64,000 nt of DNA from the NCBI GenBank assembly GCA_000004695.1, contig CM000151.3:6624001-6688000 (forward strand), given 5' to 3'. Position 1 is the stretch's first letter. Every line of letters starts with the position of its first letter. The translations under genes and the position numbers were made by a program. Positions 7,152 to 41,749 of the stretch are shown piece after piece. The notes beneath the pieces were generated by a model, which saw only the letters and a program-made list of their open reading frames with translations, was not told the origin of the DNA and ran no database searches. The DNA comes from Dictyostelium discoideum. Taxonomy: Eukaryota.

Positions 7152-8139
7152 ATGGAATCATATTCACCATCAATTCAAAAACTATGTGTTTTCTTAAAAC
7201 CAGAATCAGATATTTCAAACACTGGTATTTCATACTTAAATAATTTCCTCGCTGATATGAGCAATGCCATCATTGTTGAATCAATTCATAGTTCAAAATC
7301 ACATAAACACAAGACAATTCTAATTGAAGACATTGAATCAGCACTCAATGTTGTTTTCCCATCTGAAATTGCAGACTCAATTATTAATCAATCAAAAGGT
7401 CGTATTCAAAGTACTTCTTTAAAGAATTTAATGCAAGTTAAAACTTTTAATAATGGTGGTAATAATAATAATAATAATGAACAAGATAATGATCTACAAG
7501 AAAAAGAACAAAATGAATTATCAGATGATTCAGATGTTGAAGGATTTGAAATTATACCAAATAATAACAATATCTACTCACATGACGTTAGTCTTTGTTT
7601 TCCAATTGATTTGGTGTGTCGTGTAACATTGGATTACATTTGTAGAAAGAAGGTAATCCACCAGAATCCATCCGATTTCTACAAGGTGATAGAACAACAA
7701 CAATCGAATCACGTTATCTATACCTACATCTCTTATGCATTGGAGGTTATCACCACCAAGATTTTAATTAAAATTTCTTCATCCACAGACTTGATCGATG
7801 AAGATATCATCCGAAAAGTCATTCAAGATAATCATCATTTAAATTCAGTTCGTCATAAAAATATTCAAGCTTCAAATATTGCTGGTAAATTGTTAGATTC
7901 TTCTTCCTCTTCAAATTCTAATTTACAAACTTCCTTATCTTCTTCTTTTATTTTCTCTTCAAGTAGTAATAATACTACTACTTTTACACAACAAGAACAA
8001 CAAGAACAATTCAACGACGATAAAATTAGTGGTGATGAAATTGAATTTGAAATTAATAATAGTAAATATTTGGAAAAAGAGGATAAAAAAGATCAATTAA
8101 TTCAAAAAGATGAAGAAATTATTTTAAAAACTTTTAATG

Positions 8140-8208
<69 letters not shown>

Positions 8209-8576
8209 TTAATATTAATAACGATAATGATAATAATAATAATAATAATAAAAATAATGATAATAAAAATTATGATAATAATAATAATAATAATGCCGAT
8301 AAAATAGAAAAACTATCACCTGTAAATAATAATGTAAAAAATAGCGAAATTGAAAAAAATATAGAAAAATTAAAAAATATAAATAATAATAATAATGTTG
8401 AAATTAATGAAGCTTTAATTTCAATCATTAAAGAAACTTGTAAAAATATTCCTTCTTCATCATTTTCTTCTGTAAAAAACTTGAAACGTTCACCACCATC
8501 TTTATTTAAATTCAAAGAGCCAATCGATTTGGTTCAAGTTTTAGCTGAAGGAGGTATACATATGGAAGCAACGTGA
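7152..8576 (+). CDS. Histone H2B-fold protein (H2B variant-like) with a roughly 380-aa low-complexity C-terminal extension
   Basis: The N-terminal 95 aa align with the H2B globular core (ESYS...DTGIS...NFLADM...KHKTILIEDIESALNVVFP.EIA...SKG, versus H2B [78 protein letters not shown]). The remainder is Asn/Ser-rich. A GTGAGT at 8573 followed by ...caaacag at 8720 could add a short 3' exon; this is not resolved. Confidence 0.6.
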
Positions 8577-16386: not shown

Positions 16387-16459
16387 GCCCGTTTAGCAAA
16401 GTTGGAATTGCGGCAGCCTTCTAAGCTGCAGGTCGTGGGATCGAGACCCACAATGGGTG
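16387..16459 (+). tRNA. tRNA-Arg (anticodon UCU), copy 1
   Basis: Cloverleaf read by eye: acceptor GCCCGTT/AATGGGT (two G-U pairs), A box TAGCAAAGTTGG, D-stem GCAA/TTGC, anticodon stem GCAGC/GCTGC with loop CTTCTAA, T-arm GTGGG-ATCGAGA-CCCAC. An identical copy lies in inverted orientation at 23152..23224. Confidence 0.75.
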
Positions 16460-16490
16460 ATATTTTTAACTGGGAAATTTATAGATCGCA

Positions 16491-16503
16491 GGTTCAATGT
16501 CTG
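16491..16503 (+). promoter_or_regulatory. External B box (exB) downstream of tRNA-Arg copy 1
   Basis: GGTTCAATGTCTG lies 32 bp after the tRNA 3' end. Dictyostelium tRNA genes typically carry an extra B box about 30-40 bp downstream. The same spacing is seen at 22448..22459 (-), 23108..23120 (-) and 56481..56492 (-). Confidence 0.6.
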
Positions 16504-16649
16504 ATATGAAGATACACGTGAAAAGTAATTCATCCTTTTCTATCCTTAATCTCGGTCAATTTTAACCAATCTTTCAAAAAAAATCACCAATCCACCACGA
16601 TCTACAGATCTAACTTACCAAATCGCCGATTCAAAGGAATCCCATCGAG

Positions 16650-17903
16650 ATGAATTCCTACGCAGACGCGGCTAAAATGGCCAACCCCTCCACCCATATG
16701 GACGAGGCATCAGAGAACTTCATTAAGGAATTCTCCACAAAAACAGCAGAGATAAAGGAGACCTACCCCAAATTATCAATAGGCCTCAAAGACATCTCCA
16801 AATACTGCGAGACCATATTGAACATGACTGCTCTCTCAACCTACGAGAAAAACAACGGATTCTACCCAATTACACTCGAATTCCCCAAAATGGATCTCAT
16901 GGGGTTAGAAGAAATGAGAAAAACACTCTCAAACTACGATATCCCAATCGACAAGATATACATAGGCAAAGGAACTAGAAAAACGATCCACCTGATGATT
17001 AAAAACGAACAATCTCTCCTAAATATCATTAGAGATAGAAGCAAATTGGGAACCTTCATCACCTCCAGTAGAGACTACCACGTCCTCACAGGAAGAGTAA
17101 GAATTCCAAGAGAAAAGGCAGGAATAGTGGACGCCCTCATCAAAACTGCCTTTGCAGAAGAAATACCCTATGCAATATACCATACTATATACTCCACCGA
17201 CCACCTCCTAGTATTCGGTCTAATAGAATGCAAAATAGGCGATCAAATGAAATCTGGCCAACACAATACAGAAATCGCCAACTTTACCATCAGAACGGCC
17301 ACCAAAACCTACTCCTCACAAAAGAAAAATAAGAAAGTAGAGTCAAACAACACGGAAGAACCATTAGAAGATGAGATGACAGATGATCCTCCCAACATCC
17401 AAAACAGGATAGCAATCAAATCCTCTCAACCAAAACCACAACAACAAACATACAACCCAGCAAACAATAAGTCTGATAAACAATCAACCCAAGAGAAAAA
17501 AGCCCAATCAAAAAAGTCCTCTCAACCTCTTCCCCCCAAAAACCAAGCAGAATCTCAATCTGTCAAACCCACCACAACCACTACCACAACATCCAACGCC
17601 ATCCAAAAAGACAATGCCAACAAAACGAGCACTAACATCCATTCATCCTCGGAAAACAGAGAGAAGACACCAAACATCCCTCCATCACATAAACGCAAGA
17701 ACGAGGAAATCCACTCAAACAACGAGGTCACCCAACTCTCACCAACAATAAACAGAAGCAACCCTTACATCCCATCCACCCCTAAGACACCTGTCAAAAA
17801 AGAAAGGAAAGGAATCATTGAGAGCTTCATAGAGAGTATCTACCCTTCACCATCCAAACCGCAGCTATACGACTCCCAAGAGGAGATCGATATCATCTCA
17901 TAA
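16650..17903 (+). CDS. Retrotransposon ORF1 (417 aa)
   Basis: GC-richer than the host DNA. Basic/Ser-Thr-rich C-terminus. Its stop overlaps the ORF2 ATG (TAATG). Confidence 0.75.
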   Translation: MNSYADAAKMANPSTHMDEASENFIKEFSTKTAEIKETYPKLSIGLKDISKYCETILNMTALSTYEKNNGFYPITLEFPKMDLMGLEEMRKTLSNYDIPIDKIYIGKGTRKTIHLMIKNEQSLLNIIRDRSKLGTFITSSRDYHVLTGRVRIPREKAGIVDALIKTAFAEEIPYAIYHTIYSTDHLLVFGLIECKIGDQMKSGQHNTEIANFTIRTATKTYSSQKKNKKVESNNTEEPLEDEMTDDPPNIQNRIAIKSSQPKPQQQTYNPANNKSDKQSTQEKKAQSKKSSQPLPPKNQAESQSVKPTTTTTTTSNAIQKDNANKTSTNIHSSSENREKTPNIPPSHKRKNEEIHSNNEVTQLSPTINRSNPYIPSTPKTPVKKERKGIIESFIESIYPSPSKPQLYDSQEEIDIIS

Positions 17904-20900
17904 TGGTAGTAATCAAAATCAACCAATGGAATGTCAGAGGTTGGGGCACTGACACCTCCTTCAAAAACAAAACAGACTTTATCAAATCCCAATCCCCCCC
18001 AAACTCATTGGCACTAACCATAGTCAATGAACTCAACGCCGACGCAACACAAGCACACCAGCTATTTCCTGGCTCCATCATTAGCGCAACCAACAGAGGC
18101 AACGGAATAGGAATACTAAACCACAACAACCAAAACATAAAACTCTCACCAATATTCATAATAGAAGGTAGACTAATAATATCAGACATTCTAATAAAAG
18201 ATACCACAACGAGAATCTTGGCCATATACGCCCCGGCCCAACCTGATAAGGGAAAAATACTAGCTTGAACACTAAACAAACACTTGAACAACCAATACCA
18301 CAACCTAACGTCTAACCCTAAAAAAAACATCGACATCATAGCAGGTGACTTCAATTGTTTAGACTTCAATGACAATCACACATCAAATGACGACCAAGGC
18401 AACTTGACAACACAATCCCCAGATGAGATGGCCACAGTAATTGAAGCCATCAGAATTTCAAATAACCTAATGGATATGGACCAACTAAATAAAAGACCCA
18501 CCTTCTCAAGAACGATACACAACACAAACAATAACCTCACAAGAATCTTGGAAAGGAGACTAGACAGAATATACCTTAACAATAGCATAATCAACTACAG
18601 TCAATTATACTTAAGGAACCTAATCCCCCCAAAAATTAACGACATACCTCTATCAGATCACAACTTCCTATCAACCACCTTCACTCTACCCAACATACAG
18701 ACGAACATGCGCAGATGGAGATTAAAAAAATCCTCAATCCTCTCAAGCATAATGCTTAAGAAAATAGACATCCTACTTAACGATTATTCAAGGGAGCTGT
18801 CATCCAACCATAACTCTATTTCCTTCTCTCAACTCAACAGCTTACTGAACAAAATAAAACAACTATACACAGAATTTCAAAAACAAAACGACTACAACAA
18901 TAAGGCAAACATCAAAAATCTAATCTCCCTACTAGAGACAGAATTTAAAGACCAAGCCTTTGCAACCCTTTCAGCAATAAATGAATCTAAAAGAAGAGAA
19001 GAACAACTTAAACAAGAATTGAACAACTATTGCGAAGAAACCTCACTCAAGTACATCTCCGCGAGAATCAAGAAAAGACACAATGATTTCACCATCAACG
19101 CAGTAAAAGATACACAAGGTAGAACAATCAACAAACAGGAATTGATCGAAGAAGAATACGTAAAATATTACTCAAATCTTTATGACTACAAAGAAGATGA
19201 CCCACCATCTCATTATGAAATGTTGGAAAATTGGACAGTGACCAGGGACTCAACATGGGACAACCTTGAAAATGAATTCACATCACAAGAGATCCTAGAA
19301 GTAATAAAACAATTGAACCCACACAAATCTCCAGGCCCAGATGGAATTCCAAACTTATTCTACATAACACACAAAGAAAAACTAGCTCCAATACTGGCCT
19401 CAGCATTCAACGACACTCTAAGAAATCCTCATCTAATTAGCAAAAATTACAAAGAAGGCCTCATTATCACGATACCTAAAAAGGGAGATCCCGAACTAAT
19501 CAAAAACAGAAGACCAATTACACTGGCCAACTGTATATATAAAATCCACTCAAAACTAATAAACAATAGAATAATCCCAATACTAACGAAAGTGATCAAC
19601 CACAATCAAAAAGGTTTCGTACCAGGCAGATTCATTCTCGATAATATCATATCAATTAACGAATTAATCAACTATTGTAATGATAAAAGAATTAACGGAA
19701 TAATTACACTATATGATTTCGAAAAAGCTTTTGACTCGATCTCACACGGTTCAATACTCAGATCACTACAACACATCAACATTCCAACCAATATAATCAA
19801 CCTGATAATGAATCTACTCACCAAATCTGAGGCAAGAATTGAAATTAATGGTAGAACTACTATACCCTTTGAGATCAAAAGAGGAGTTAAACAAGGAGAT
19901 CCACTATCACCCACCCTGTTCGTCCTTGTAATAGAGGCTTTAGCTAGAAAAATTTTACAAGATGACCGAATTACTGGCCTTCCTCTAAACAACAGCAACC
20001 ACAGAGAGAAATTCCAAAGCTTTGCAGACGATTCGGCTTCAATGGTCCCAGACTCTCAACAACTTGAATTAGTACTACAACACTTCAATTCATTTTGCAA
20101 AGCCACTTCCTCAAAACTAAACATCGACAAATCTTCATCAATTCTTATAGGCAACCCAGACAATACCAACCAAAGAATTCCAATATCTACAAATCCAGAA
20201 AGATACTTGGGATACTTCTTCACAGGCAAAGGGATAACAAGAAAAATGCCAGAAATATTAAACACAATAAGATCATCCTTAGTACTATGGAAAACCACTG
20301 ACTCAACAATCAAAACCAAAACCAACATCCTCAAAGCATTCGCACTCTCTAAATTAACCTACTATTCATATGTAGAGAACTTTAAGGAAGAGGAATTAAA
20401 CCAAATCAATAAATTGGTCGAATGGTTTTTATCGGCACCTAACAACAAAAATGCTAGTGGATTTCAAGTTATTAATTTAATGAGAACCAAAAGAGCAAGA
20501 TACCCACTAAATGTAGGGGGCTGGAACATTTGGAATATAGAATTGAGACAACTGGCGCAGAAACTTTGGATCATAAACCAGTTCATCCTAGCACTAGAAA
20601 CCAAACAAACAAACTCATCTCATCACAAAAGCTGGGAATATCAGATCCAAAAAAACAAATTCACATCCAGATACCTAAAAGAAAACTTAGACGAATGGAA
20701 CAAAATAAGAATAAAAAAAGCAATCTTCAACAATAATCTCACATCCATAAAAAACGAAAATGGACAACCACTTTCACTGGCAGAATGGTATACCACAATT
20801 CAAGACCAAAATCCAACCATCCCTAAAACGGAATTCCAATCATCTCTAAACTTAAGAGGCTACAGCTATAATCAACTCTTCAACAACATACTGAAGATAA

Positions 20901-21493
20901 AAGACCCTAAAACAAGAGACACAATGTTTAGATTCCATGCCAGATGCCTTCCAATAAACTACCTTCACAACAAACAATGCCCACTCTGCAAAGAAGATAT
21001 GAGCAAAGACCCATACGGTCACCTGTTCTTCTCATGCAAGAAAACAAAACAATTCATAAAAATAAATAAACTCAAAAATTTCATCTATATTACCACAGGC
21101 AAAGGTAAAAACTGGCACCATACAAACTTTGAATGGAACTATAAAGCAATAGACTATGATCTAACTAGATCATTCGCATATAGAAACCTAATGGCCCTTA
21201 TCCTCCACAACATTTGGATTTGGATTTGCAATCAAATATACAGTGAAGATCCTTTAACAGATGAATCACTATCATACAGCTCCCTTCTAAAGAAATGGCA
21301 CAAATTGGCCACTCTAGAATACATCAAAAAAGCAAAAGATCTGAAAAACTTATCAGCAAAAGACCATAATAACTTCAAAGATCCTAAGATCCTTCTCACT
21401 TCAACGATCAAGCTAAGAAAAACAACAGCTAATTACTATTGTATTCCAGAATCATCTCTCCCAAATATTATATCTTTTGATCAATTCATATGA
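17903..21493 (+). pseudogene. Retrotransposon ORF2 (endonuclease-RT-zinc finger) interrupted by a single in-frame TGA at 18266..18268
   Basis: Track ORFs 17903..18268 and 18284..21493 are in the same frame (both coordinates are 2 mod 3). They are separated only by TGA, within the endonuclease domain. Confidence 0.75.
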
Positions 21494-22490: not shown

Positions 22491-22573
22491 TGCAAGAGGC
22501 GAGATTCGAACTCGCGAACCGAATGGATGAGATCTTAAGTCACACGGATTTAACCAGACTTTCCTACCCTTGC
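22491..22573 (-). tRNA. tRNA-Leu (anticodon UAA) with a long variable arm
   Basis: Minus-strand read: GCAAGGG-TA-GGAAAGTCTGGTTAAATCC-G-TGTGA-CTTAAGA-TCTCA-TCCATTCGGTTC-GCGAG-TTCGAAT-CTCGC-CTCTTGC-A. T-arm GCGAG/TTCGAAT/CTCGC, a 12-nt variable arm, and an exB box GGTTCGATTCTC at 22448..22459. Confidence 0.65.
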
Positions 22574-23151: not shown

Positions 23152-23224
23152 CACCCATTGTGGGTCTCGATCCCACGACCTGCAGCTTAGAAGGCTGCCG
23201 CAATTCCAACTTTGCTAAACGGGC
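23152..23224 (-). tRNA. tRNA-Arg (anticodon UCU), copy 2, inverted relative to copy 1
   Basis: Exact reverse complement of 16387..16459 (73/73). The downstream exB box (rc GGTTCGATGTCTG at 23108..23120) is conserved, but the spacer between has diverged. Confidence 0.75.
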
Positions 23225-34354: not shown

Positions 34355-35046
34355 TGTTGTTTTTTTTTTTTTTTTTCCAATCAATATTGAAAAATAAAAA
34401 AAAAAAAAAAATAAAAAATAAAAAAAAAATGAAATGAAAGACAAGTGATTTGTGTTTGTAAAAATTTCCTCGTTTACACGAAAATGAAATTATTTTATTT
34501 TTTATTTTTTTTGTTGGATAATTTTATTATTTTTTATTTTTATTTTTTATTTTTATTTTTTTTTTAAATCAAAACATATGTTAATAATAATAATAATTTT
34601 TCATTATGCTGTTTTTCTTCACAAATTCTTTTTTTTATTTTTTTATTTCTTTAATATTATTTTACTAGTAAAGAAATATAAATAGCGTTAGAATGAAAAT
34701 TTTGGAAATTTTTACAAAAAACACCCCAAAATATCATTTTAATATTTAATTTAAATTTTTATTTGTTCTTTATCTTTAAAAAAAAAAAAAAACTCTTCAA
34801 AGCATTGGTAAATATAAATACTTACTAGTTTTGTTAATAGATAATTTTAACAAATGAGGTTTATTATATCTATTGATATCTTTTTAAAAAAAAATTTTTT
34901 TTTTTTTTGGGGGTAAAATTTAAAAAATATATGAAATTATTAAAAAAAAAAAAACATTTTTATTTTTTAATAAATTTAAAAAAAAAAAAAAAAAAAAACA
35001 TTTTTATTTTTTTAATAAAGTTAATAAATTTGAAAAAAAAAAAAAA

Positions 35047-37094
35047 ATGGAAAATAATAAACCTTATAAGTTTATAGACAGAAATTTAAATATCATTAAA
35101 AAAAGTGGTAGTTATGAAAATATTTATAAATCATTTAAATATGAAATACCAGAATATTTTAATATTGGTTTAGAAGTTTGTGATTATTATGCAAATGATC
35201 CTAATAAAATGAATAATATTGCAATTAAACATATTTATGATACTGATGATAAACAAATTTTAAAAGAGTATGTAATTAAAAAAAATATTAATAATTTAAT
35301 TAAAATAAAATAAAATAAAATAAAATAAAAAAAAAAAAAGGACAAATTCTAAAAAAAATAAAATTCTATTTTTAAATTATTAAAAAAAAAAAAAAAAAAA
35401 AATAAAAAAAAAAAAAAAAAATTAGGTATACATTTAAAGAAATTAAAATTAAATCAAATCAATTGGCAAATAAATTTAAAGAAATTGGTTTAAATAAAAA
35501 AGGTGAAGTTGTTGGTGTTTTTTTAACACAAGGAATTGAATGTGCTTTATCACATATTACAATATTAAGAAGTGGTTTTATTGGATTATTATTATCAGTT
35601 TTATTTGGACCAGAAGCTTTAGAATATAGAATTTCATCATCATCAGCTTCATGTGTTATCACTGATTTAGATAATATTCATAAACTATTAAAAGTAGTTC
35701 CAAATTTACCAAGTTTAAAGAAAATTATTGTATTTGGTGATAATTTAAATTCAATTAATTATTCAAAACATAAAAATATTGTTGAATTGTAATAATTAGT
35801 ATATTTATATATATATTATTTTTAATTTTAAAATTTCACAATACATACTAATCAATATAAATATATATTATTTTAATTTAACTTTAGATGGAATGAAAAT
35901 ATTTGTAATAATTATTCAAAAGAATTTGAACCAATTATAACCAAATCAAATGAACCAGCATATTTAATATATACATCAGGTACAACTGGGTTGCCAAAAG
36001 GATGTTTACATGCACATAGAGTATTAATTGGTAATAATGTTGGATTACAATTCACATTGAATCTATTCCCTCAAAATACAGTATCAGTAACAGAGAATTG
36101 TTATTATTCACCCGCTGATTGGGCATGGATTGGTGGATTATTAGTAGTGTTTTTACCATCATTATATTTTGGTGTACCTTTGTTAGCATATAAATCAAAA
36201 GGTCCATTTGATGCAAAGAAATTATTAACACTAGTGAAAACTCATAATGTAACAATGTCATTCTTACCACCATCTGCATTGAAAATGATAAAGTTTCAAA
36301 AGGATCAATTAAAAGATCATAAAATTAATAATATGTTGGCAATCAATAGTGGTGGTGAAAGTTTAGGTGAGAATTTATTAGTTTGGTCAAAAGATCAATT
36401 TGGTGTTGAAGTTGCTGAATTTATTGGGCAGAGTGAAGGAAACTTCATTACTGGTAATTGTTTAGATTTATTCCCTCCAAAGAATGGATCAATGGGTAAA
36501 CCAATACCAGGGAGCAATGTCAGAATATTAAATGATAATGGTGAGCGAGTACCTCACGATGAAGTTGGTTATTTATGTATAGAATTTACAGGTGATAATG
36601 CAAATCAATTCTTAGGTTATTGGAATGACCCTAGTTCAACAGAGAAAAGAATGATTTTCTCAAAAGAAAGTGGTACCAAATGGATAAAAACTGGTGACCT
36701 TGCAAAAGAGGATAGTGATGGCTACTTTTGGTATATTGGTAGAGATGATGATGTTATTAATTCAAGTGGTTATCGTATTGGTCCAAATGAAATTGAAGGT
36801 TGCCTACTAAAACATCCATTAATTTTAAATGTTGCTGTTATTGGTATACCTGATGAAATTCGTGGTGAAGTTGTAAAAGCATATATTGTTTTAAATCAAT
36901 CAGTAACACCTTCACAAGAGATAAAAAAAGAAATTCAAAATTATGTTAAAACTCAATTATCAGCTCATCAATATCCAAGAGAAATTGAATTTATAAATCC
37001 AAATGAAATGCCAATCACAACAACTGGTAAAATTATGAGAAATTCATTAAGGCAATTACATAAAATGAAAAGTAATAATAAATCAAAAATTTAA
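35047..37094 (+). CDS. AMP-dependent acyl-CoA synthetase/ligase (medium-chain type), 3 exons, about 596 aa
   Basis: Exons: 35047..35267 (donor GTATGT), 35426..35788 (acceptor attag; donor GTAATA), 35888..37094 (acceptor ctttag). Motifs: AMP-binding YTSGTTGLPKG, linker TGDLAKEDSDGYFWYIGRDDDVINSSGYRIGPNEIE, C-terminal GKIMR. Confidence 0.8.
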
Positions 37095-37121
37095 AAAAAA
37101 AAAAAAAGAAATTTCTTTATC

Positions 37122-37154
<33 letters not shown>

Positions 37155-37295
37155 TGTGCGGATTAGCCAAATCTAACATTTTTTAATTTTTTTTTTTAAA
37201 TTTTTCAAATCAAACACTTTTTTTTTTTTTTTTTTTTTTTTTTTTATTTGTTTTTTTTTTTTTATTATTATTTTTTTTTTATTATTTTTCTTTTT

Positions 37296-37862
37296 TCACC
37301 TTTTTCTTTGGTATTGATTTCTTTTTTTTTCAGACCAGAAGTTTAGGCTTTGGCGATAAAATCCAATGAACAGTTCTTTGTTTTTAATTAGAGAATTATC
37401 GATGGTGTCAATAATCTCATCAAGGAAGGACCCATGGGAATTACGTTCTCGGTAGAAATGGTTCTTGATATAGCCAAAGAAACGCTCAATGGGATTCAAC
37501 TCTGGAGAATAGGAAGGAAGAAATATCAATTGAACCGAATATTGATTAAACAATTCAAATAGTGCATTTAAAGCTTCGATACCACCGTGAATTGGAGCAT
37601 TGTCCATTACCAATAATGAACCAGGCTTGCAAAATCCACTTTCCAAAAGTTCTCTAACATATTGAAAGAAGTCTTCAGTATTATTGGTTTTATCACGGAT
37701 TTTATACAAACAATCATCCAAACTGATGGTGAAAAACACATTGTAGGTCTCAGAAATGCTGGTGCTATTGGTAACATAAACCGGCTCTCCAATCGGTCCA
37801 ACAGCTTTAGATCTCCTTAATTCTAATAAAAAACCTTATTAGTTTTAATTATTTATTTTGTA

Positions 37863-37911
<49 letters not shown>

Positions 37912-38458
37912 AAAAAAAATTAATAAATATAATTACCTTATAATGTTAATAGTGGAATTCAGAATAGATGGAAAGAAAGACAATTATTTAATTAAAAATA
38001 TTTTTTAAAAAAAAAAAAAAAAAAATTAGTATAAATATTTATATTCAATCTAAAATAATAAAATATAATACCTCTAGAAGAAAAATAAATTTTTTTCCAA
38101 TCAGTATTGTAAATTATTGTATTAAAATAAAATAATTTTAATAAATTTTCAATTTTGTATTTATTTTCCTAAAAAAAAAAAAAAAAAATTAACAAATAGT
38201 TAGTTATTTAATATATTAAAACTTTTTTACTTACTTGTTTATAGGTTGGAGAGTGGTAATTCCATTTCAATTCTTTGAATATTGAACATATCCTCGATTT
38301 GTTGACCTTTTTATAAAAAATAATTGAGTTGATTTCTGGTCAAACCATATTCACGAGCAGCTCTACTTATATTACCGATTCTAACCCCATATTCTAATGC
38401 ATTGTATATTCTCTCAGTATGCTCAATTAAGTGAGTTAAACTTCTTTTAGGTTTCATT
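37296..38458 (-). mobile_element. Remnant of a Tc1/mariner-like DDE transposase gene (Dictyostelium DDT-type DNA transposon), with introns and frame disruptions
   Basis: C-terminal catalytic region: LLVMDNAPIHGG...LIFLPSYSPELNPIERFFGYIK (DDE signature DNAPIH / ELNPIE), in frame back to about 37845. N-terminal HTH MKPKRSLTHLIEHTERIYNALEYGVRIGNISRAAREYGLTRNQLNYF sits at 38458..38320 on the minus strand. Intron-like GTAAGT...TTTTTAG segments (about 38230..38165 and 37935..37846) and a frame break lie between the two parts. No terminal inverted repeats are recognisable. Confidence 0.6.
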
Positions 38459-38460
38459 AT

Positions 38461-38700
38461 ATTGTTATTACTATTATTACTACTATATTGCTATTGCTAT
38501 CACTATTGTTACTATTATTACTACTATATTGCTATTACTATTATTACTATTACTACTATATTTCTATTGCTATTACTGTTATTACTATTATTACAATTAT
38601 TACAATTATTACAATTATTACTACTATATTTCTATTGCTATTACTATTACCATTACTACTATATAGCTATTGCTATTAATATTTCTATTTCTATTTCTAT
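38461..38700. repeat. Complex minisatellite (about 36-40-bp period; tattactactatattgctattgctat... units)
   Basis: Direct read. It directly abuts the transposase N-terminus. The track ORFs 38462..38761 and 38488..38679 are translation artefacts of this repeat. Confidence 0.85.
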
Positions 38701-38937
38701 TACAATTATAAATATAATTAATTATATTATTATTTTGGTTTTATTAATTATGTTTTTTTAATTGTTTTTATTATTATAAACTGCAAGTGGTTTTTTTATT
38801 TAAAATAAAAAAATGATCATTTTAACCAAAAATGTAGATGTGATGGTTTATTATTATAAAAACTATGGCCAATTGTATTTCATTTTATTTATAGTTGGTT
38901 AAAATAATGAGTGAATTTTTTTTTTTTAACTGTGAAA

Positions 38938-39030
38938 CATTTCCCCCACTTTTTTTTAAATTAAAAAAAGAAAAATAGTTGGAGATATTTTCCCCCACTT
39001 TTTTTTAAATTAAAAAAAGAAAAATAAAAT
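38938..39030. repeat. Direct duplication: tttcccccacttttttttaaattaaaaaaagaaaaata occurs twice
   Basis: Copies of about 38 bp at 38940-38978 and 38989-39027, separated by gttggagatat. Confidence 0.8.
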
Positions 39031-39470
39031 AAAATAAAAATAAAATCTTTTATCAAAACAAAGATAACTTTTTTAATTTTTTTTTTATTTTAAAAATAAT
39101 AATAATAATAATAATAATATTAATAATAATAATAATAATAATAAAAATAAATAAATAAATAAAATTCAATTTATTTTATTTCCAAAAAAATTTTAGTATA
39201 AAATATTTTTATTGTATAGTTTTAAATTTTTAAAATAAAAAAAAAAATATTCATAATAATTAACTTAGAAAGTTTTTTAATATTTTATAGCGAGTTTAAA
39301 CCCTTTTTTTATTTTTTTTTTTTTTTTTTTTTTTTTTTGTTTGACTTAAGTGAGTTTTTTTAATTTTTTTTTTTATGATTAATTTGCTCAAAACGCACTA
39401 TATTTTAATTTTTTTATTTATTTTATATGTTTTTTAAATTATTACTTTATTTTCTTTTTTTTTTTTTTTT

Positions 39471-41132
39471 TTATAAAACAATATTACCATGTTTTTTAGT
39501 TGGATTTGATAATTTTTTATTTTTAAGAATTTCTAAATCTTCACAAATGTATTGACGAGACATTCTTGGTGGGATGATATCATCAATGAAACCTCTACGA
39601 GCAGCTGGTAATGGATTAGCAAATTTATCATTGTAAATTTGTTCTTGTTCTTTGATGTCACCTTTGCCTCTAAAGATGATTTCTACGGCACCTTTTGAAC
39701 CCATGACAGCGATTTGACCGGTTGGCCAAGAGTAATTGGTATCACCACGAAGATGTTTGGATGACATAACATCATAGGCACCACCATAAGCTTTACGAGT
39801 GATAATTGAGATCTTTGGAACGGTAGCTTCAGCGTAAGCATACAATAATTTAGCACCATGTCTAATGATACCATTGTGTTCTTGATTAGTACCTGGAAGG
39901 AAACCTGGAACATCGATGAGAGTTACAATTGGAATATTGAAACAATCACAGAAACGTACAAAACGGGCGGCCTTAACAGAGGCATCAATGTCTAAACAAC
40001 CTGCGAGTTCTTTTGGTTGATTGGCAACGAAACCAACAGTACGACCCTCCATACGAGCATAACCAACGATGATATTCTTGGCAAACTCTGGTTGAATCTC
40101 AAAGAATTCTCCTTCATCAACGATACGTTCAATGACTTCTTTCATATCGTATGGTTTGTTTGGATCGTCTGGAATGATTTGATCCAAGACATCATCTTCA
40201 CGAGATGGTGAATCGAATGCTTCTCTCATGGCTGGTTCATTTGGATTTGATGGGAGGAGAGTGACAAATTCACGAACTCTCTTTAAGGCATCGATATCAT
40301 TGTCAAAAGCAAGATGGGCAACACCAGATTTGGTGGTATGGATTTTAGCACCACCTAAACCCTCTTGAGAGATCTCTTGATTGGTGACAGATTTGACAAC
40401 ATCTGGACCAGTGACAAACAAGTAACTGGTGTCCTTTACCATGAATACGTAATCGGTGATGGCTGGTGAATAGACGGCACCACCAGCACAAGGTCCCATG
40501 ATGACAGAGATTTGAGGAATGACACCACTTGCCATAACATTACGTTGGAAAACTTCAGCATAACCAGCCAATGAAGCGATACCTTCTTGAATACGAGCAC
40601 CACCACTATCGTTTAAACCAATGACTGGTGCACCAACTAACATTGCTTTATCCATGATCTTGCAAATCTTTTCAGCATGTGCTTCAGAGAGTGAACCACC
40701 ATTGACTGTACTATCTTGACTGAATACAAATACCAATTTACCATTGATTGTACCATGACCTGTTACAACACCATCACCTGGTGTCTTTTCAACGTTGAAA
40801 TCAGTACAACGATGGGTTACCAACATATCGTACTCTCTAAATGATCCATCATCCAATAAGAGATCCAATCTTTCACGTGCTAATAATTTACCTTTACCAT
40901 GTTGAACATCAATCTTCTTTACACCACCTCCTAATTGTGCTCTCTCTGTTTCTTCTTGAATTCTACCATTTATTCTTTCAATTGTTGATTCATATTTTAC
41001 TGCTTTGAATGGTTCTTTTGCTGGTGTTGGTTTACCTGTAGCAAAACTTTTAATACCTTGTGATGATACATTTTTACAATTCTTATTCAAAAATTGAATA
41101 GTATTTTTATTTAATAATCTTCTTGATAACAT
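39471..41132 (-). CDS. pccB: Propionyl-CoA carboxylase beta chain (carboxyltransferase), mitochondrial precursor, 553 aa
   Basis: Full-length collinear similarity to PCCB (…[123 protein letters not shown]…). The N-terminus is basic (MLSRRLLNK). Confidence 0.9.
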
Positions 41133-41217
41133 CTTTTTCTACCTCCTTTTTTTATCAAAAAATTAAAACAAATAAAAAAAAAAATAAAATAAAATGATTT
41201 TTTGAATGATGGAATGA

Positions 41218-41249
<32 letters not shown>

Positions 41250-41749
41250 AAAAAAAAAAAAAAAAAAATTAAATTTTTAAAATTTCAAATTTATAAAAAA
41301 AAAAATAAAAAAATAAAAAATAAAAAAAAAAAAATTATTTTATTATTTGATCACTTCATCTTCATCATATTTTTTTTTTTTTTTTTTTTAACAAAAAATA
41401 TTTAAATATTTATAATTTCTTTGTTTTGTTTAATATAGAAGAGTAATCAATTGATAGTGATGAAATTAGAAGTGGGGGTGGAATGAAAATGGACCAATTA
41501 AATTAAAATATTTCAATATAAAGAATTTTTATTTTATTTTATTTTTTTTTTCACTTGTTTATATAAATTTCAAATAAAAATAAATCAAAAAAATAAAAAA
41601 AATCATTTTAATCTCCAAAAGTTTATAATATTTTTTTTTTTTCCATTTCCTTTTTTTTTTTCCTTTTTTTGGAGGGTATGTTACTATTGATAAATATCAT
41701 ATAATTATGTTATCTAACTATTGTTCTTAGTAAGTATCGAAATTGGAGA

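Follow-up and report, generated by a model that had tools for sequence, protein, structure and literature searches.

A probable dead, internally deleted Tc1-like transposon copy next to pccB in Dictyostelium discoideum AX4

Introduction

Tc1 and Sleeping Beauty, both DD34E elements, are the closest described systems to the Dictyostelium elements considered here. The two groups share a DDE_3 domain, a D..D(34)E triad (in intact copies), a TA duplication and short terminal inverted repeats, and the Sleeping Beauty catalytic domain was the best solved-structure match. A bipartite HTH region at the N-terminus may be common to both as well. In contrast to Tc1 and Sleeping Beauty, the Dictyostelium transposase gene has two spliceosomal introns, intact Dictyostelium elements add a divergent orphan gene of ~385 aa, the repeats begin with TTGTGCG, and the AX4 copy is without the first Asp. 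SETMAR, a domesticated mariner transposase with a homologous catalytic domain, is a fixed, intact and selected gene that is fused to a host domain and lacks mobile ends, whereas the AX4 sequence is frameshifted, repeat-bounded and presence/absence polymorphic.

The DDT-A, DDT-B and DDT-S elements live in the same host and, like the present element, are putatively cut-and-paste; their ORFs have been described as containing introns and a DDE-like motif. As catalogued, the putative DNA transposons of D. discoideum are the DDT elements, at 0.9% of its genome (PMC5633606). Their transposases were reported to have no similarity to known transposases (PMC5633606), and the DDT-B consensus is 5471 bp long (PMC9012585). 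Literature searches on the gene identifiers of the locus, and on DDT together with Tc1/mariner, found no relevant report.

Here, we analysed a 64-kb stretch of AX4 chromosome 2 (the window, to which all coordinates refer). The results indicated that 37154–39400 is very probably a Tc1-like (DD34E) cut-and-paste transposon copy that has suffered internal deletions and is dead.

Results

Extent, ends and target site

The element spans 2247 bp (37154–39400) and encloses a minus-strand transposase remnant. With its TA duplications, the whole feature occupies 37152–39402, compared with the 37296–38700 first reported in a preliminary description of the locus. The parts outside the transposase gene are as follows.

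37152–37153, no strand: TA target-site duplication, downstream end; a single TA in empty alleles
37154–37179, plus strand: 3'-side terminal inverted repeat, sequence TTGTGCGGATTAGCCAAATCTAACAT; core motif match at 37156–37172
37180–37295, minus strand: 3' untranslated part of the element, A/T-rich
38458–38708, no strand: complex minisatellite built from hexamers of the TAATAG/TAATAA/CAATAG type, higher-order period 41 nt, adjoining the transposase ATG
38709–39374, no strand: left-arm remnant (second-gene region and divergent intergenic spacer), from BLAST and MAFFT comparison with loci L001 and L002
39375–39400, minus strand: 5'-side terminal inverted repeat, minus-strand sequence TAGTGCGTTTTGAGCAAATTAATCAT; core motif match at 39382–39398
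39401–39402, no strand: TA target-site duplication, upstream end (relative to the transposase gene); a single TA in empty alleles L017 and L018

The terminal repeats are 26 bp long (TTGTGCG...CAAAT) with a TA beside each, and they were located via homology to intact copies; a generic inverted-repeat search of 34500–41500 returned poly-A/poly-T pairs only. The preliminary description had stated that terminal inverted repeats were absent, and this was overturned by the TA-flanked pair at 37154–37179 and 39375–39400. The dot-plot range that it proposed for finding repeats (37100–39100) leaves out the upstream one, which lies 700 bp past the claimed span.

The two repeats of the AX4 copy agree at only 17 of 26 positions. 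Copies L001 and L002 are asymmetric in the same way, which suggests a trait of the family. The 5'-side repeat has the same sequence as the left repeat of L002, and the repeats of L001 and L003–L006 are homologous to it; relative to L001 and the group-B repeats, it carries a T-to-A change at position 2. The core motif GTGCGNNTTNNNCAAAT occurred exactly twice in the window, in inverted orientation (0 matches in 100 shuffles), and was likewise present exactly twice and inverted in each of seven element-carrying loci. A TA was also found beside L001–L006. Blastn over the whole window detected no second copy of the element.

The transposase gene and its lesions

The gene reads on the minus strand and consists of three exons.

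38235–38457, minus strand: exon 1, 223 nt, with a 182-nt internal deletion (lesion mapped against L002 and P0001, and compared with P0001 and P0003)
38169–38234, minus strand: intron 1, 66 nt, GTAAGT..TTTTTTAG; position after ...YKQ conserved in groups A and B
38072–38168, minus strand: exon 2, 97 nt, with an in-frame 18-nt deletion
37823–38071, minus strand: intron 2, 249 nt, GTATTA..TTATTAG; position within ...SSR/E conserved in groups A and B
37296–37822, minus strand: exon 3 and stop codon; DDE_3 core, frame uninterrupted over 175 codons

The ATG at 38457 starts MKPKRSLTHLIEHTERIYNALEYGVRIGNISRAAREYGLTRNQLNY, which includes the HTH-like stretch. The minus-strand ORF 37296–37739 holds VMDNAPIHGG and SPELNPIERFF, and the DDE core that had been described as DNAPIH…ELNPIE was thereby recovered. 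The gene had also been called intron-bearing, in agreement with the two GT..AG introns of 66 and 249 nt, both placed as in intact relatives. These introns are ancestral to the element family and do not mark a host gene. A mini-exon in intron 2 (~37940–37990) was considered and rejected: intact P0002 and P0004 run ...SSR straight into ELRR/ELTR.

The reported frame break was traced to the junction of the 182-nt deletion at ~38319–38322, which shows TATT microhomology. This deletion shifts the frame, with a stop after ...NQLNYFL, and removes ~61 codons, which encode the linker and where the second HTH begins. The 18-nt deletion takes out LDECSF, including the first catalytic Asp, at a place where alignment A1 has a conserved FLDE motif. 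Given the frameshift, the partial loss of the DNA-binding domain and the loss of the first Asp, the AX4 copy cannot encode an active transposase.

Assignment to the Tc1/mariner superfamily

The Pfam family DDE_3 matched the ORF 37296–37739 of the remnant (37296–38457) with E = 1e-16 and 61.6 bits, against a cut-off of 28.6, confirming the earlier identification of a Tc1/mariner-like transposase remnant on the minus strand. A search of solved structures with the single sequence P0001 gave no match, and a family profile was needed; it matched the Sleeping Beauty catalytic domain (5e-15), Mos1 (4e-9) and SETMAR (4e-8). As read from the sequence, 34 residues separate the second Asp, in VMDNAPIH, from the Glu of SPELNPIE. 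The triad is complete in P0001 and P0004 and incomplete in the AX4 copy, where the first D of FLDECSF is gone; the AX4 copy is thus a defective member of the superfamily by descent, not a functional one. Of the hallmarks of the superfamily, a DDE_3 domain, a TA duplication and terminal inverted repeats are present.

An N-terminal HTH domain had also been proposed. There is an HTH-like stretch, which shares alignment A1 columns with the N-terminal regions of HTH_23/HTH_28 fungal relatives, but direct Pfam matches in this region were weak and below cut-off (HTH_8, E = 0.0015, in the AX4 copy; HTH_33, E = 0.0028, in P0011). The family profile aligned with Mos1 from residue 42, and with the DNA-binding domain of Sleeping Beauty weakly (E = 0.013). 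Fungal relatives carry HTH_23, HTH_28 and HTH_32 domains. The closest relatives outside the dictyostelids, from Mucorales fungi and among unnamed metagenome proteins, are only 26–38% identical.

Minisatellite and left arm

The transposase ATG had been reported to touch a 240-bp minisatellite that abutted the gene. The contact was confirmed and the array measures ~250 bp (38458–38708), but it is not a neighbour in the genome: L001 has a homologous array in the same relative place, indicating that the minisatellite belongs to the interior of the element. Group-B elements do not contain it and have a 118-bp × 2.1 repeat there instead. The minisatellite may represent slippage-prone spacer DNA within the element.

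The left arm is short by ~1.4 kb relative to L002 and contains a (TAA)n run at 39091–39150, as judged by a repeat finder. A tblastn search of 36500–40000 found no coding remnant of the second gene.

Related copies and the second gene

D. cf. discoideum contains intact 3.5-kb copies that are 98–99% identical, occupy at least three sites, and have ~35-bp repeats and TA duplications. They share the two introns, encode a complete DD34E transposase and carry an orphan gene as their second gene, and the ~35-bp repeats of the group-B copies are near-perfect. An identical 348-aa three-exon transposase was found at four places, representing three independent sites; L004 and L005 sit in a 12.4-kb segmental duplication. 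AX4 itself has a paralogue, DDB_G0286157 (P0001), of 352 aa with all three catalytic residues. The preliminary description had held that clear repeats plus an intact ORF elsewhere would make the locus a truncated ordinary copy. The 348-aa genes in repeat- and TA-bounded elements are exactly such a case, and DDB_G0286157, also an intact gene elsewhere, bears on the same point.

DDB_G0286157, L001 and L002 share lineage and introns with the AX4 copy, L001 and L002 its repeats as well, and all are ~99% identical to it over exon 3 (4 of 522 nt differ from L002, 6 of 522 from L001). They differ from it in what was retained: P0001 keeps the 61 residues and the LDECSF motif absent from the AX4 copy, L002 has kept the second gene and lost the ATG region, and L001 has lost the first ~38 codons. 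Group-A substitutions lean synonymous, with dN/dS of 0.08–0.25 on just 4–8 differences, which makes the ratio uninformative. The synonymous skew would fit selection on active source copies and formally leaves room for some constraint. The element copies have a dS of 0.03–0.06. Horizontal transfer between lineages was dropped as a candidate, as these values are close to the dS of the host gene pccB between AX4 and the empty-site genomes L017 and L018 (0.045–0.048). Homologues of the transposase comprise only two AX4 proteins and ~10 Dictyostelium proteins in all, indicating a low-copy family.

The second gene encodes ~385 aa and is oriented divergently to the transposase gene; its product has an N-terminus rich in Cys, a coiled coil and, at the C-terminus, a conserved domain of ~140 aa. 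It matched no Pfam family. Four relatives were found in a word-indexed search and seven among 1.84 billion representatives. The AlphaFold2 model had a mean pLDDT of 52 and was confident in the coiled coil only.

Filled and empty alleles

On one side of the element lies pccB (39471–41132); on the other, an AMP-binding acyl-CoA-synthetase-like gene ends at 37094. The pccB product of the window is exactly XP_643178.1; the adjacent annotated gene is DDB_G0276339, a 'Tc1-like transposase DDE domain-containing protein'. The same TA is empty in four related genomes: two labelled D. discoideum, one labelled D. cf. discoideum, and D. citrinum (loci L016–L019, of which L019 is the more diverged D. citrinum). 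Upstream, synteny with L016–L019 breaks at 39401–39404; downstream, it resumes at 37148–37154 for L016–L018 and at 37081 for L019. The spacer between pccB and the AMP-binding gene is only ~64–89 bp in the empty-site genomes. The empty allele L018 reads ...AAATAAATA-TA-AAAAAAAAAAAAAATAGATAAAG, with both AX4 flanks matched around one TA. Another D. discoideum assembly (L015) has the same insertion, with 0 substitutions in the element and a 17-nt length difference in intron 2.

These alleles show that the element integrated at the TA of a ~88-bp spacer between the convergent pccB and AMP-binding genes, in the lineage leading to AX4. Taken together, the presence/absence polymorphism at pccB and the near-identical copies elsewhere point to mobility of the family.

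Discussion

The intact element is ~3.4–3.5 kb long, with a transposase gene of three exons and a second gene pointing away from it. By analogy with Tc1/mariner, the transposase would bind to the TTGTGCG...CAAAT repeats via its predicted N-terminal bipartite HTH, and its D,D(34)E RNase-H-like site would cut and rejoin DNA, duplicating the TA. The AX4 copy has lost the second gene, acquired a frameshift through the 182-nt deletion and lost the first Asp through the 18-nt deletion. With both repeats kept, the copy could be mobilised in trans at most, and exon 3 is probably intact because the copy is young rather than because of selection.

The preliminary description left open whether the gene was domesticated or decaying. 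Decay is well supported by the lesions, whereas it is very unlikely that DDB_G0276339 is a domesticated host gene, for example a truncated protein of the DDE domain only. Its annotation in AX4 as a protein-coding gene (P0057), the uninterrupted 175-codon frame of exon 3 and the few, mostly synonymous substitutions between copies would suit such a role. However, exon 1 carries a frameshift, deletions have taken the first catalytic Asp and some of the DNA-binding domain, and the AX4 gene model must skip at least 600 nt to dodge the lesions. Exon 3 and its paralogues differ by only ~1%, so no selection is needed to explain why it is intact. The terminal repeats persist at both ends, as does the TA duplication, and the site is vacant in four related genomes, two of them labelled D. 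discoideum; this presence/absence polymorphism largely refutes domestication. The 12.4-kb segmental duplication containing L004 and L005 might suggest that a gene fragment reached this locus through segmental duplication or ectopic recombination. Homology to the other copies ends at the terminal repeats, the flanks share nothing with L001 or L002, and they match the empty alleles around a single TA that is duplicated in AX4. These junction sequences refute such an origin.

Two further proposals concern the affiliation and the fate of a dead Tc1-like copy. Membership in the DDT-A/B/S family, judged here from descriptions, would accord with the intron-containing ORFs and DDE-like motif described for those elements. 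It would also accord with DDT being the catalogued putative DNA transposons of D. discoideum (PMC5633606). Nevertheless, we consider it improbable: intact copies measure 3.4–3.5 kb against the 5471-bp DDT-B consensus (PMC9012585), the AX4 protein clearly matches DDE_3 and Sleeping Beauty, and the family is low-copy (two AX4 and ~10 Dictyostelium proteins), so that it resembles DDT neither in the size of DDT-B nor in the 0.9% genome share. Neither of the two AX4 genes bears a transposon-gene name in its sources, and no match in the protein homologue search was named DDT. Mobilisation of the non-autonomous AX4 copy in trans by DDB_G0286157 is compatible with the main explanation, not opposed to it. 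The copy has both repeats and the conserved core, and the full-length 352-aa DDB_G0286157, with a complete triad and ~99% identity over exon 3, could in principle supply the enzyme. On the other side, the left repeat has an A at position 2 in place of the T found in L001 and group B, and AX4 and L015 share the copy in the same place with no sign of movement; we regard mobilisation as rather unlikely.

A broader reading of the family is put forward tentatively. It may be a low-copy, two-gene Tc1-like (DD34E) family that the published D. discoideum repeat catalogue does not list, that was active until recently or still is in the species complex, and that is defined by an intron-bearing transposase and a conserved divergent orphan gene, with the AX4 copy as a non-autonomous member that DDB_G0286157 could still mobilise.

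The value of these results lies chiefly in annotation, and current understanding is unchanged. DDB_G0276339 is better flagged as a transposon-derived pseudogene within a 2.25-kb repeat-bounded element than as a host gene, and P0058, a fused pccB-transposase model in another assembly, is an artefact. The data point to a small Tc1-like family whose copies in a sister lineage are intact and nearly identical, and which has one gene in AX4 that appears intact; the family could serve Dictyostelium genetics if an endogenous cut-and-paste transposon is wanted. For transposon biology, the conserved second gene is a small curiosity. The locus itself provides a clean filled-/empty-site marker within the D. 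discoideum complex.

The transposase gene and its annotation

The minus-strand ORF at 37296-37739 encodes ...LLVMDNAPIHGG...LPSYSPELNPIERFF... and, together with its upstream extension, matched Pfam DDE_3 (E=1e-16, 61.6 bits; gathering score 28.6). An ATG at 38457 begins MKPKRSLTHLIEHTERIYNALEYGVRIGNISRAAREYGLTRNQLNY, and the HTH signal following it was weak (Pfam HTH_8, E=0.0015, under the cut-off). Two GT..AG introns were confirmed, and exon 1 contains a genuine frame break. A repeat finder placed a complex, hexamer-based minisatellite with a 41-nt higher-order unit at 38458-38708, adjoining the ATG. All features by which the preliminary description had recognised a transposase remnant within 37296-38700 were therefore present. 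The element to which they belong has the following parts:

37154-37179, plus strand: terminal repeat TTGTGCGGATTAGCCAAATCTAACAT, preceded by TA at 37152-37153
37822-37296, minus strand: exon 3, intact
38071-37823, minus strand: intron 2, GT..AG
38234-38169, minus strand: intron 1, GT..AG
39400-39375, minus strand: terminal repeat TAGTGCGTTTTGAGCAAATTAATCAT, preceded by TA at 39402-39401

A 553-aa minus-strand ORF at 39471-41132 agrees in every residue with XP_643178.1, the propionyl-CoA carboxylase beta chain (pccB) of D. discoideum AX4. The protein cluster of pccB also includes DDB_G0276339 (168 aa), which UniRef names 'Tc1-like transposase DDE domain-containing protein' and whose accessions directly precede those of pccB. 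Its gene model combines the two outermost coding segments of the reported feature, which is therefore an annotated AX4 gene. At the syntenic locus of GCA_054883475.1 (L015 8001-11820), a single 804-aa model merges pccB, the translated minisatellite and the transposase remnant. This fusion is a gene-model artefact; it explains why DDB_G0276339 lies inside the 90%-identity cluster of pccB, and that clustering is probably why DDB_G0276339 was missing from our homology search.

Terminal repeats and intact relatives

The preliminary description had found no terminal inverted repeats. The repeats at 37154-37179 and 39400-39375, each with its TA, contradict this; they were overlooked because one sits 700 bp beyond the reported span and because poly-A/T swamps a generic inverted-repeat search. 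Their core, GTGCGNNTTNNNCAAAT, had exactly two occurrences within the 64 kb, inverted relative to each other, and matched in 0 of 100 shuffles. It likewise occurred exactly twice, inverted, in all seven fetched element-bearing loci (7/7). In the window copy and copies L001 and L002 (together group A), the repeats agree at 17 of 26 positions with an identical asymmetry in the three copies, so that the imperfection appears intrinsic to the lineage. A single terminal-repeat-like sequence, TTGTGCGTTTTCTGCAAAATG, preceded by TA, lies at L002 20973-21000, at a distance of 9 kb from the element there; it may mark the terminus of a further copy or of a miniature derivative.

Four places in the D. cf. 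discoideum genome (GCA_054859205.1; group B) encode one and the same 348-aa transposase. The DNA common to these places is a 3.5-kb unit, 98-99% identical from place to place, with near-perfect inverted repeats TTGTGCGTTTTGGACAAATCACCCAA(A)TTTTTCAG at both ends and TA on either side; the flanks are unrelated from site to site. L004 and L005 both belong to a 12.4-kb segmental duplication, so these two places are not independent insertions, leaving three independent sites. This duplication (L004 7095-19505 and L005 7101-19496) is inverted and 99.5% identical, its halves lie about 29 kb apart, and it sits among clustered tgr-like (Ig_TgrO1) genes. Other transposase-like genes were seen near fetched loci (L016 1387-3406, L004 2633-4166): a DDE_Tnp_4/HTH_Tnp_4 (Harbinger-type) gene and a DDE_1 (pogo-type) gene.

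The transposase gene of the 3.5-kb unit has three exons, with exon 1 ending ...YKQ|GT and exon 2 ...SSR|E, and shares its intron positions with the window copy. The introns measure 310 and 92 nt in D. cf. discoideum versus 66 and 249 nt in the window, and protein identity is no more than about 52%. Because their positions are kept despite these differences, the introns are ancestral to the element family; they are no sign of a host gene.

Insertion site and timing

Syntenic loci in other genomes were fetched through pccB orthologues. The site was empty in D. cf. discoideum (L016), in two assemblies labelled D. discoideum (L017, GCA_054859385.1; L018, GCA_054859355.1) and in D. citrinum (L019), with a convergent AMP-binding gene within about 64-89 bp after pccB. 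Alignment of the window to these loci broke upstream at 39401-39404 and restarted downstream at 37148-37154 (L016-L018) or at 37081 (D. citrinum, more diverged). The empty L018 allele reads ...AAATAAATA-TA-AAAAAAAAAAAAAATAGATAAAG, and the filled AX4 allele ...AAAATA-TA-[element]-TA-AAAA...ATAGATAAAG; a single TA against a TA on both sides is a textbook TA duplication. L015 carried the same insertion with the same lesions, with 0 substitutions in 2.2 kb and a sole difference of 17 nt in the length of intron 2. The dS of pccB from AX4 was 0 for L015, 0.045-0.048 for L017 and L018, 0.084 for L016 and 0.20 for D. citrinum. Thus, the element inserted after AX4 split from L017/L018 and before it split from L015.

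In the empty alleles, the site is a spacer of only 88 bp between the two convergent genes. The element lies 69 bp past the pccB stop codon and 58 bp past that of the AMP-binding gene (window 37094-37152 and 39402-39471), probably within or beside the 3' untranslated regions of both.

Decay of the AX4 copy

Lesions of the AX4 copy were measured relative to L002 and to the AX4 paralogue DDB_G0286157. Exon 1 has a 182-nt deletion bounded by TATT microhomologies (junction about 38319-38322). It costs the gene about 61 codons (YRRDIKDN...NSDQNSI), spanning the linker and the beginning of the second HTH, and causes a frameshift with a stop following NQLNYFL. In exon 2, an in-frame 18-nt deletion takes out LDECSF, including the first catalytic Asp. 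The left arm is short by about 1.4 kb, so that the second gene of the intact elements is lost, and no coding remnant of it was detected in the AX4 copy. Exon 3 differs from L002 at only 4/522 nt and from L001 at 6/522 nt; its intactness therefore reflects youth. Overall identity between copies was 89-90%, the mismatch being mostly indels in A/T runs. Lesions differ from copy to copy in group A: about 38 codons are missing from the start of the coding sequence in L001, and neither the ATG region nor the minisatellite is left in L002, as expected of independently decaying copies.

The preliminary description had considered a domesticated or a decaying gene. Decay was borne out, and domestication is contradicted: the frame is shifted, a catalytic residue is gone, the ends are retained and the insertion is polymorphic for presence or absence. 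It had also named an ordinary truncated copy, should terminal repeats and intact copies elsewhere come to light; we found clear terminal repeats here and intact copies elsewhere. What the window holds is a Tc1-like transposon copy that is dead and non-autonomous. Its mobilisation in trans by DDB_G0286157, which appears intact, would be possible.

Relatives and class

The reconstructed spliced product of the window transposase recovered 47 homologues. The nearest were all from Dictyostelium, namely DDB_G0286157 (352 aa) and proteins from new genome assemblies of D. discoideum and D. cf. discoideum, followed by a EukProt protein at 36% identity and, at 26-39%, unnamed metagenome proteins and Tc1-like proteins of Mucorales (Rhizopus, Rhizomucor). 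A 19-member family profile matched the catalytic domain of Sleeping Beauty (E=5e-15), Mos1 (4e-9) and SETMAR (4e-8). Intact members have the triad FLDE, VMDNAPIH and SPELNPIE, and the 34 residues from the second Asp to the Glu, read from the sequence, make this a DD34E element of Tc1 type.

Mariner-superfamily elements have already been reported in D. purpureum (PMC3188802), so the genus was already known to have elements of this kind. The consensus of DDT-B has a length of 5471 bp (PMC9012585), whereas intact elements of the window family are 3.4-3.5 kb, and the transposases of D. discoideum DNA transposons have been described in a review as having no significant similarity to known transposases (PMC5633606). 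The window family is low-copy as counted among annotated proteins. Compared with DDT by published description, size and copy number, the indirect evidence leans against membership. The window element belongs to a well-known kind of transposon, within which it may be new or uncatalogued.

The second gene and the minisatellite

Intact elements carry a second gene of about 385 aa, divergent from the transposase gene and not present in the window:

L003 8200-9422, minus strand: second gene of group B, 384 aa
L002 8561-9921, minus strand: its group-A relative

The N-terminus of the group-B product is rich in Cys; the protein also contains a coiled coil rich in Lys and Glu, and its conserved C-terminal domain bears C-x-C and KSCxxCGD motifs. 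The two groups share 35% identity across the C-terminal 140 residues (E=2e-23). A Pfam search of the second gene matched no family, a handful of relatives were found among 1.84 billion representative proteins, and its structure model was of low confidence except for the long coiled coil. The gene is conserved between the groups and otherwise an orphan. For a Tc1-like element it is unusual to carry a conserved accessory gene, and this is the sole mildly novel aspect.

The minisatellite is internal to the element, between the two divergent genes. L001 has a homologous TAATAG-type array in the equivalent place, and group-B elements have a 118-bp tandem duplication instead. The array, which the preliminary description correctly saw touching the ATG, is spacer DNA that is prone to slippage and specific to the lineage. 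It is no neighbour of the element in the genome, and we saw no evidence of a function.

Other features of the window

G+C across the window is 15-40%. Window 8135-8421 shows 79% DNA identity to L001 1167-1440, near a contig start in another assembly; the 474-aa ORF spanning it (7152-8576) had no Pfam match, and the similarity possibly reflects a dispersed gene family. A tRNA-Arg(UCU) gene lies at 16387-16459 (plus strand), and about 190 bp 3' of it are plus-strand ORFs at 16650-17903 and 18284-21493, the latter with a reverse-transcriptase domain (RVT_1, E=9e-34). The region 16387-21493 has a G+C of 35-42% and a strong strand skew, and looks like a tRNA-gene-targeted non-LTR retrotransposon, placed as is typical of TRE3-type elements. 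Just past it are two minus-strand tRNA genes (22491-22573 and 23152-23224), tRNA-Leu(UAA) and a second tRNA-Arg(UCU).
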